From Cladosporium halotolerans (taxonomy: Eukaryota): a stretch of 64,000 nt of DNA. This document shows, in pieces, positions 34,812-36,860 of the stretch; the stretch's first letter is position 1, and every line of letters begins with the position of its first letter. Location of the stretch: the NCBI RefSeq assembly GCF_011745625.1, contig NW_027191473.1:124001-188000 (forward strand). Reading direction: 5' to 3'. A program made the position numbers and the translations under genes. The notes beneath the pieces were generated by a model. It searched no databases. It was given only the letters and a program-made list of their open reading frames with translations, and was not told the DNA's origin.

Positions 34812-36860
34812 TCAAAGCCTTGCCCGTTCTCGGTCGTCACGAGCGAAGATCCCTTTCACTCGTTGCTTGTCCATTTCGGCTGATTTGAGCACTCGTCTCA
34901 GGAGTTTGCCGGTTGGGCTCTTCGCTGTAGAGGCAAAGTCAGTACGCGTTTCAAACTCAACACATGCCGAGCAAACCTCGTCACGCGTGACGGCCATACG
35001 AAAGGCAGAAGGACGCAACATACTGCGACATCGTCAGCAAACCCAATCCCACGCCATCTCCACTCTCCAAAATCCACTCACCGAATACTTTCCCGAAATT
35101 CCACCTCCACCAGCCACTTATACCTCACCTTCCGCCCCCTCACAAACTCCAACAACGCCCCCGCCAACCCCTCGCTCCCCTCCACGCCCTCTCGCAACAC
35201 AACGACCGCCTTCGGCCTCTCCCCCGCATATGCGTCCTCAACCCCCAGCACAGCCACATCTTCCACGCTCTCGTGCCCCAGCAGCAGATCCTCCAGCTCC
35301 GCCGGCGCAACCTGCTGGCCCTTGACCTTGATCATCTCCTTGATCCGATCCTCGATGAAAATCAACCCTTCCTCATCGATGTGCCCAACATCGCCCGTGT
35401 GCAGCCAGCCGTCGCGGAAGGTCTCGGCCGTGGCCTTGGGGTTGTGCAGGTAGCCCATCGCGATCTGGGGCCCGCGCGCGCAGATCTCGCCCGTCTCGCC
35501 GGGGCCGAGCTCGCGCCTGGGCCCGTCGTCGTCGTCGCCGTCGAGCGAGAGGACTTTGGCGGCTGTGTTGGCGACGAGTTTGCCGGCGGACGTCGCGTAC
35601 TTGTACGCGTAGTGCGAGGGCGGGTGCGCGGAGATGCAGGCCGTCGACTCCGTGGCGCCGTAGCCCTGGCGGAAACCGGTGGAGGGGAAGTTGTGCTGGA
35701 GGAGGGAGATGATTTCGGGGCTGATGGGGGCGCTGCCGGAGGACCAGCGTTTGACGACGTGGCGGAGGGCGGGGAGGTGGGGGCGCGCGAGGGGATCCTT
35801 GACGAGGCGGATTAGGATTGGGGGGACGAGGATGAGCTCTTCGATCTGGTGGGTTGTTATGCAGGTGAGCATGGCGGGGAGGTCGAATTTGGTTAGCATG
35901 AAGCAGTCGCCGTTCATGAGGAGGGGGTAGGTGCAGAAGCGGACGAGACCGGTGATGTGGAAGAGGGGCATGACGGCGAGGATTTTGTAGCGGGTGCCAG
36001 GGGTGACGAGCTGGAGTTGGCGGAGTTGGTGGCATTGGGCGATGATGTTGTGGTGGCTGAGCATGACTGCTTTTGGGAGGCCGGTGGTGCCGGAGGAGAA
36101 ATTCAGGTAGCCTGTTGGGTATTGTCAGTACGTGATATGAGGGTCTGTATGGGATCGTGTGTGGCGAACTGTGGTGCTGGTCAGCGAAGAACGCGTTGAA
36201 ACCGATGATATGGCAGGATCATACCCGCAAACTTCTTTGTTCGTCTGCCCTGTCGATATGCTCCATGCTGGAACCTCATCCATTTTCTCTCCGTCACTGA
36301 TCATGGCCTGAAGACACCTAGTCCCGTCAACCTCTCCCTCCAGCAAGATAATCCTGTCTTTCTCCAACCCCACCGTCTTCGCAGCCTGTACAGCGACATC
36401 CAAGCAAGAGGGCAAAGTGAATATGATTCTACTACCAGCCGTCTTGATAGCATGCACCATCTCATCGACACCATACGCAGGACTGGCACCATTGACTCGC
36501 GCACCAACGCGTAGCGCAGCCCACATGGCGACCGGGTACCAGATGCTGTTGGTGGCGAACAGAGAGACGGTCTCGCCTGGCTGGAGACCATAGGACCGAA
36601 CCAGAACATTACTAAGGGACGTGGCGAGCTGCTTGACCTGAGGAAACGATAGTCTCGACGAAGGGTTGAGTGCGTCGATGTATGCACCCTGTTCAGTCGA
36701 TGATGGGTTGGCGACGGGGGAGTATGAAGGGTGTTCGAAAGCCCATTGCCATGTTGTAAGATCTGTTGGGACTGTTCTCATGTCAATTAGAGACCTAGTA
36801 AGCGAATTCTGAAGAATCCTTACTGTCAAGATCCGGATGAGGCGATTTCCAGATCACCAT
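34812..36860 (-). CDS. 4-coumarate/phenylacetate-CoA ligase-like ANL enzyme, peroxisomal (PTS1 -ARL). Exons 36860-36824, 36771-36226, 36111-35083, 34924-34812; two of the three intervening sequences are stwintrons
   Basis: P-loop YLNFSSGTTGLPK; motifs MPLFH, QGYGATE, GWLHTGD and RIKEMIKVKG; A10 motif IPKSPTGKLLRR; C-terminus ...RERARL*. Confidence 0.93.
34925..35082 (-). other. [D1,2] spliceosomal twin intron (internal 35081-35023; external 35082 + 35022-34925)
   Basis: Minus strand reads ATTC|G|GTGAGT...GCTGAC...GCAG|TATGT...ACTGAC...ACAG|CGAAG. Removing the inner intron creates the donor GTATGT. Confidence 0.85.
36111..36225 (-). other. [D1,2]/[A2,3] spliceosomal twin intron
   Basis: Minus strand reads TGC G|G|GTATGA...GCTGAC...CACAG|TTCGC...ACTGAC...AACAG|GC TAC. 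Two branch points are present, and a single GT-AG excision would frameshift the gene. Confidence 0.85.

Follow-up and report, generated by a model that had tools for sequence, protein, structure and literature searches.

A probable [D1,2]/[A2,3] stwintron before the ATP-binding loop in a 4-coumarate-CoA-ligase-like gene of a Cladosporium-related Dothideomycete

The host gene

The gene considered here lies on the minus strand of a 64-kb window (the whole stretch of DNA that was analysed, to which all positions refer), and its four exons are separated by one ordinary intron and two putative stwintrons. The coding part of exon 1 (36824..36860) begins with the ATG at 36860-36858 and is followed by intron 1 (36772..36823), an ordinary GT..AG intron of 52 nt that is skipped with no placement ambiguity in contigs of the runs X2 and X6, where 36771 is joined to 36824. 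Exon 2 (36226..36771) encodes the N-terminal part of an AMP-binding domain (PF00501, E 6.5e-18) and, in the [D1,2] reading, ends with ..KEVC plus G. Exon 3 (35083..36111) contributes the GC of a Gly codon, YLNFSSGTTGLPK, the rest of the AMP-binding domain (PF00501, E 7.7e-46) and the AMP-binding_C domain (PF13193, E 6.4e-10), and exon 4 (34812..34924) runs from ..PKSPTGKLLRR.. to the C-terminal ARL, with the stop codon at 34814-34812. The spliced frame encodes 574 residues, is in frame throughout and gives a full AMP-binding protein, whose C-terminal ARL we take to be a peroxisomal PTS1-like ending.

Based on PF00501, PF13193 and the SSGTTGLPK loop, the product is predicted to be an AMP-binding (ANL) acyl-CoA ligase resembling 4-coumarate-CoA ligase. 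The closest named proteins, 70-76% identical, belong to rock-inhabiting and Cladosporium-type Dothideomycetes, and the orthologues in this range bear the names 4-coumarate-CoA ligase or hypothetical. In an alignment with 20 full-length homologues, the last residue of exon 2 is a conserved Cys, the first of exon 3 is the Tyr of YLNFSSGTTG, and a single column (Gly in 18/20, Ala in 2/20) stands between the two; homology therefore independently requires one codon at this junction.

Several features were observed in and around the gene. One JGI model of the protein (P0006, 589 aa) has an extra ESIWTLYQYSWNQADFQTV where intron 1 sits (alignment columns 12-30), which looks like an intron kept in frame by the gene predictor. 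Just 3' of the gene, a degenerate tandem array (34321-34750) is composed of five copies of a unit of about 58 nt, 61-100% identical to the reference copy, and upstream of the gene (37420-37587) two direct repeats of 71 nt lie 97 nt apart and share 87% identity.

Layout of the stwintron before the P-loop

Read on the minus strand, the junction of exons 2 and 3 has the letters TGC G G / GTATGA..GCTGAC..CACAG / TTCGCC..ACTGAC..AACAG / G C TAC. With its surroundings it reads ..AAA GAA GTT TGC G G, GTATGATCC..TTCGCTGACCAGCACCACAG, TTCGCCACAC..GTACTGACAATACCCAACAG, after which exon 3 opens with G C TAC CTG AAT TTC TCC TCC GGC ACC ACC GGC. On the 5' side, TGC (36229-36227) precedes G 36226 and G 36225, the first letter of GTATGA is 36224 and GCTGAC occupies 36185-36180; on the 3' side, CACAG ends with G 36169, ACTGAC occupies 36129-36124, AACAG ends at 36112, and G 36111 and C 36110 follow. 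Two U2 units can be delineated in this interval: the 5' unit A (36169..36224, 56 nt) with GTATGA, GCTGAC (A 36181, 12 nt before the 3' end) and CACAG, and the 3' unit B (36112..36169, 58 nt) with GTTCGC, ACTGAC (A 36125, 13 nt before the end) and AACAG, G 36169 being part of both. Both units possess a donor, a branch element and an acceptor of their own and a length usual for fungal introns, with a weak donor in unit B, since GTTCGC is far from the usual fungal donor; the first G of that donor would be supplied by G 36169 in the [A2,3] route or by G 36225 in the [D1,2] route. The two units are not significantly similar to each other, as a tandem-duplication origin would have left them (global score -2; shuffles with mean -8.5, sd 3.8 and maximum 4).

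A G stands upstream of the 5'-most GT, and the internal AG is followed by T, so that G+T can form an external donor, which is the [D1,2] arrangement (36112..36225); AACAG is likewise followed by G (36112/36111), so that CA+G can rebuild an acceptor, which is the [A2,3] arrangement (36111-36224). In both readings 114 nt are removed. In the parts of the literature drawn on here, a [D1,2] stwintron counts as an [A2,3] stwintron too if the exonic position on both flanks is G (PMC5587772, PMC5639578), and the proposal of an earlier note on this DNA that the element may be spliced as either type agrees with the definition in PMC5587772, G being present on both exon flanks. The letters, coordinates and arithmetic of that note (36224-36169, 56 nt; 36169-36112, 58 nt) are all correct.

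The same genomic frame is used on both sides, with ..TNKEVCG upstream and GYLNFSSGTTGLPK.. downstream, and is split by an in-frame TGA (36127-36125); hence only a multiple of 3 can be removed. The sole donor-acceptor pair with good signals across this stop, GT36224..AG36112, is 113 nt long, and removing it alone shifts the frame, as the earlier note had pointed out.

Evidence from RNA and DNA contigs

Two contigs, one each from X2 and X6, join 36110 to 36225 and skip 114 nt, with a placement ambiguity of 2 letters that permits three placements (ends GT..GG, GG..AG or GG..CA). The mature junction in both is TGC GGC TAC, identical to the predicted TGCGGCTAC. Since the same contigs also remove intron 1 at its canonical GT..AG ends, we infer that they derive from transcripts. 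The RNA support comes from one study and at most two samples of one organism (the X6 sample is the X1 sample) and from assembled contigs, which drop rare forms. None of the X2 or X6 contigs reaches into 36132-36205, and no partly spliced intermediate appears among them.

The mature mRNA lacks both units plus one flanking G, which is unobtainable from any single canonical intron. Among the enumerated in-frame single introns with GT/GC/AT..AG/AC ends, none sits at the observed RNA junction; a single canonical U2 intron (an in-frame 81-nt GTTCTT..CAG, a 117-nt GCGGGT..CAG and others) was rejected because of this mismatch.

The genomic letters were compared with two further contigs. The X1 DNA contig (47,450 nt, depth 33.5), which may come from the source sample of the window itself, has no differences, gaps or joints against the window over 34800-37000. 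The contig from a related organism, X5 (36044-36461), is unspliced, has five substitutions and no gaps, and keeps the third G; no splice signal is affected by the two substitutions listed within the intron (36174, 36209). The third G is thus regarded as real. One base, at 36871 in the 5' untranslated region, is missing near the end of the X6 transcript contig and present in X1 and X2, and is probably an assembly error.

Relatives at the P-loop site

A scan of metagenome contigs gave 48 loci, of which 36 cover the P-loop site and 12 are uncovered there or too distant. The stwintron is present in 16 covering loci (12 distinct sequences) and no intron in 20, which are more distant and have a contiguous TGY GGN TAY, or GCN TTC; a plain intron was found in none. 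All 16 stwintron-bearing loci have G followed by GT, then CTRAY, YAG, TnnG, a second CTRAY and a final YAG, and the GGGT is kept in every one. The spacing from CTRAY to the internal YAG is 11 nt in 16/16 loci and 12 nt in the window. Outside these signals the stwintron interiors defy alignment, and between 106 and 150 nt are removed. In the window and the 16 loci together (17/17 sequences), the Cys and Leu codons are separated by 7 nt once the single GT..AG is taken out, and by 6 nt once both units are. The conservation of the internal signals amid divergent interiors is the chief reason to think that the internal sites serve in splicing and that excision proceeds in two steps.

The base after the last AG divides the stwintron-bearing sequences into two states. 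In the window and eight loci (L001-L007, L022) it is G (Gly, G/GC), and either route is available; in eight Cladosporium-like loci (L008, L010, L011, L013-L015, L023, L027) it is C (Ala, G/CC), so that only the [D1,2] order is possible there. The unit B donors of the nine either-route sequences, in which neither order does harm, are weak (GTTCGT, GTTCGC, GTCCGT, GTGCGT, GTTTGC), and in 8/8 strict loci, where splicing the 3' unit first is a dead end, the donor is the consensus GTGAGT. This pattern runs opposite to naive expectation.

Maximum-likelihood trees were built with 49 and with 63 rows, without L038-L048, whose sequences were too short or too distant. All stwintron-bearing rows form one group with no intron-less locus inside it (support 99/98 with 49 rows, 82/66 with 63 rows), and two changes suffice to place the three states (either-route, strict and intron-less) on the trees. 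The [D1,2]-only rows, including a protein of Cladosporium sp. NU13, form a clade (100/93), and the either-route rows form the grade that surrounds it, so that the either-route state is probably the older one. The strict state probably arose with the Gly-to-Ala change, given the direction of the root that we infer from these trees. That either route can be used is itself probably incidental to the Gly codon: the downstream exon opens with the second letter of this codon, a G.

One ORF call (P0048) falls inside the stwintron group yet is contiguous across the site, which would be explained either by precise loss or by a transcript-derived contig. ORF starts at MLSHHN were tried as a proxy for the intron and dropped, as P0090 starts there and the near-identical L031 is contiguous at the site.

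In the Cladosporium-like loci L008 (2280-2580), L010 (2235-2560), L011 (590-870) and L023 (2280-2590), there is an extra ordinary intron just after SSGTTG (GG/GTAAGT..ATAG/T CTA CCC). L010 and L023 have another ordinary intron after MLS, which brings the intervening sequences near the P-loop to as many as three in about 60 coding bases. The deposited NU13 protein (P0021) reads ..ICGEWDLRP..IPRQLLLTYHN without SSGTTGLPK, and its odd residues match the translated 3' unit of the stwintron in L010:2235-2560 (SEWDLRPTPRRLLLT). The NU13 annotation thus mis-splices the stwintron, which deletes the ATP-binding loop.

Proposed two-step excision and alternative explanations

The explanation that we hold with considerable confidence is that the P-loop element is a genuine [D1,2]/[A2,3] stwintron in a 574-residue 4-coumarate-CoA-ligase-like gene of a Cladosporium-related Dothideomycete, excised in two steps. 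Directly established for it are the DNA layout, the mature junction and the six splice signals that are conserved in relatives. Two short U2-type introns of 56 and 58 nt would share one G and be bordered by a G in either exon. If unit A were removed first, G+TTCGC would become the external intron's donor ([D1,2] route); if unit B were removed first, CA+G would become its acceptor ([A2,3] route). A second ordinary splicing reaction would then complete the excision, with 114 nt lost and the Gly codon GGC before the ATP-binding loop restored. The main route would be the [D1,2] order, with the 5' unit removed first, because unit A comes first in transcription and its donor is the better one by the usual consensus, because once it is gone a G stands at -1 of GTTCGC, the weak donor, and because the Cladosporium-like sister clade can use that order alone.

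Among the alternatives, the one that survives best is non-canonical splicing in one step, in which a single 114-nt intron with GG..AG or GT..GG ends would be removed and the internal signals would stay unused; we consider it improbable. The mature junction alone fits one step or two, and one odd mechanism could serve both complex introns of the gene, since the other one also has net GG..AG ends; however, the internal branch element, the acceptor at 11-12 nt spacing and the TnnG remnant are kept in 17/17 sequences, and the surrounding intron is not. Chance is a poor source of such signals: when the interior of the 113-nt intron was shuffled, and YAG+TnnG with CTRAY 5-28 nt upstream and a length of at least 40 nt for both units were required, only 60 of 20,000 shuffles (0.3%) contained them. 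We also know of no regular activity of the U2 spliceosome that cleaves one base upstream of GU. For an identical layout in other fungi, two-step excision has been shown experimentally (PMC5587772, in the parts used here).

Recursive (zero-length-exon) splicing, or a pair of abutting ordinary introns, shares with the stwintron model the removal of the interval in two pieces, and is nevertheless very improbable. A ratchet point needs AG/GT, but the internal junction here is CAG/TTCGCC, so the second donor exists only once a flanking exonic G is brought in; stwintrons have been set apart from recursive splicing on this same ground (PMC5587772, as far as drawn on here). Abutting introns would account for the 113 nt that the units cover, yet 114 nt are removed.

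An assembly or homopolymer error (GG read as GGG beside one ordinary intron) or a frameshifted pseudogene, conceivable only a priori, has a negligible probability, as the third G, whose reality the earlier note had made a point to check, is kept in X1 DNA (depth 33.5 with no differences, though maybe from the source sample), in X5 without gaps and in the GGGT of 16/16 related loci, and as the mRNA keeps its frame and codes for a complete AMP-binding protein.

The second stwintron of the gene

The other stwintron of the gene (34925..35082, minus strand) is of the strict [D1,2] type. An X2 contig skips its 158 nt with GG..AG ends and no placement ambiguity and joins 34924 to 35083, which bears out the earlier assertion that the gene contains two stwintrons. 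It is composed of G 35082, an internal intron of 59 nt (35081-35023, GTGAGT..GCTGAC..CGCAG) and an external intron of 99 nt (TATGTT..ACTGAC..CTACAG), and is followed by CG. The external intron contains a perfect palindrome of 14 nt (34979-34992), which is not a terminal inverted repeat.

L001-L007, which are contiguous at this place, lack this stwintron, and so do the Cladosporium-like loci, in which an ordinary intron occurs about 24 nt beyond the position. An ending in ..IR-stop, as expected from CGG TGA/TAA, is seen only in the nearest ORF calls (P0001, P0002, P0005, P0007), which is a hint, and not proof, that the stwintron is present there. Because of its unequal spread among relatives, it looks younger than the P-loop stwintron.

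A strict motif and open-frame scan of the 64-kb window, which would miss atypical signals, gave no stwintron candidates beyond the two of this gene: one row was returned at 40 flanking codons, two at 30 and three at 20, where the additional row is the second stwintron with another 5' start. No additional copies of either stwintron were found in the window, and no significant similarity was found between the two (z 2.3, below the best shuffle). When the P-loop stwintron was compared with its own reverse complement, no significant terminal inverted repeats were detected (z 1.7), nor was a stable fold found for it (MFE z 0.59).

Origin

The earlier note suggested that the lineage or locus is prone to intron gain at existing splice sites. 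This found no support, as the counts at the P-loop site are 16 loci with the stwintron, 20 intron-less and none with a plain intron, and as the two stwintrons are unrelated in sequence and unequally spread among relatives. No sign of an older canonical intron that was invaded at the P-loop site was seen in the 36 covering loci, and no canonical descendant shifted by 1 nt occurs there among the loci sampled. As a tentative scenario, which we think doubtful on balance, the complete stwintron might have entered an intron-less site in the ancestor of the Cladosporium-related clade, and the second, unrelated [D1,2] stwintron might have been gained later; entry as a whole unit is suggested because no sampled relative has a plain intron and because TGY GGC TAC is seamless in the outgroups. 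If true, this would mean that de novo creation of [D1,2] twin introns, so far argued only for the sister stwintrons of Xylariales in the publications drawn on here, also takes place in Dothideomycetes, without repeats or symmetry.

Significance and comparison with known stwintrons

The P-loop stwintron is an RNA-supported case of the rare [D1,2]/[A2,3] configuration. It is conserved across a clade and forms a natural pair of either-route and strict states that differ through a Gly-to-Ala codon change, in a host gene that also appears to hold a second, younger stwintron. The kind is already described and rare, and this instance appears to be new: no mention of CoA ligase was found in the full text of the stwintron papers searched. 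It offers a compact natural system to ask how the order of splicing is chosen, whether stwintrons originate at old introns or de novo, and whether, in line with the 2017 model, loss of a unit gives introns displaced by 1 nt. In practical terms, gene predictors mis-model stwintron sites, and it is at this one that the deposited protein of Cladosporium sp. NU13 lost its ATP-binding loop.

The following comparisons refer to the parts of the cited papers that were drawn on here. Sister stwintrons, which are internally symmetrical and proliferating, were reported in Hypoxylaceae and Xylariaceae (PMC8469720, PMC12403724). The P-loop stwintron shares with them the [D1,2] layout and a seamless site in coding sequence that is continuous in outgroups, and among them, too, a few genes hold more than one; however, they have terminal inverted repeats of 45-55 nt and highly similar genomic copies, neither of which was found for the P-loop stwintron in the 64-kb window. 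The earlier note had called two stwintrons in one gene unusual: both are supported by RNA here, but genes with more than one stwintron have already been reported in Hypoxylaceae (PMC8469720, PMC12403724).

Strict [D1,2] stwintrons of Pezizomycotina include that of lipS and 117 in Hypoxylon sp. CO27-5 (PMC5639578, PMC9024468). As in the lipS type, the internal intron at the P-loop splits the external donor between G and T and implies sequential excision, and the second stwintron of the gene (35082-34925) and the Cladosporium-like loci belong to this strict type. For the lipS and bioDA stwintrons, formation at the position of a pre-existing canonical intron was inferred (PMC5639578); unlike in these cases, a canonical intron is found at the P-loop site in none of the sampled relatives.

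The closest counterparts are two alternatively spliced [D1,2]/[A2,3] stwintrons, one in the Trichoderma reesei orthologue of dhaoS, a DHA1 antiporter gene, for which both intermediates were demonstrated, and one in the alternative oxidase gene of Helminthosporium solani (PMC5587772). In both, two mutually exclusive orders of excision yield one mRNA, and the P-loop stwintron likewise has two U2 introns that share a single G, with G in the exon on either flank. It differs from them in its host, an acyl-CoA ligase gene in another fungal lineage, and in being known from its layout and mature junction; its units (56 and 58 nt) are also shorter than those of T. reesei (66 and 88 nt). As with dhaoS, strict and alternatively spliceable orthologues differ by the first base of the downstream exon, and the switch, an A-G transition in dhaoS, is here G/C, between a Gly and an Ala codon.
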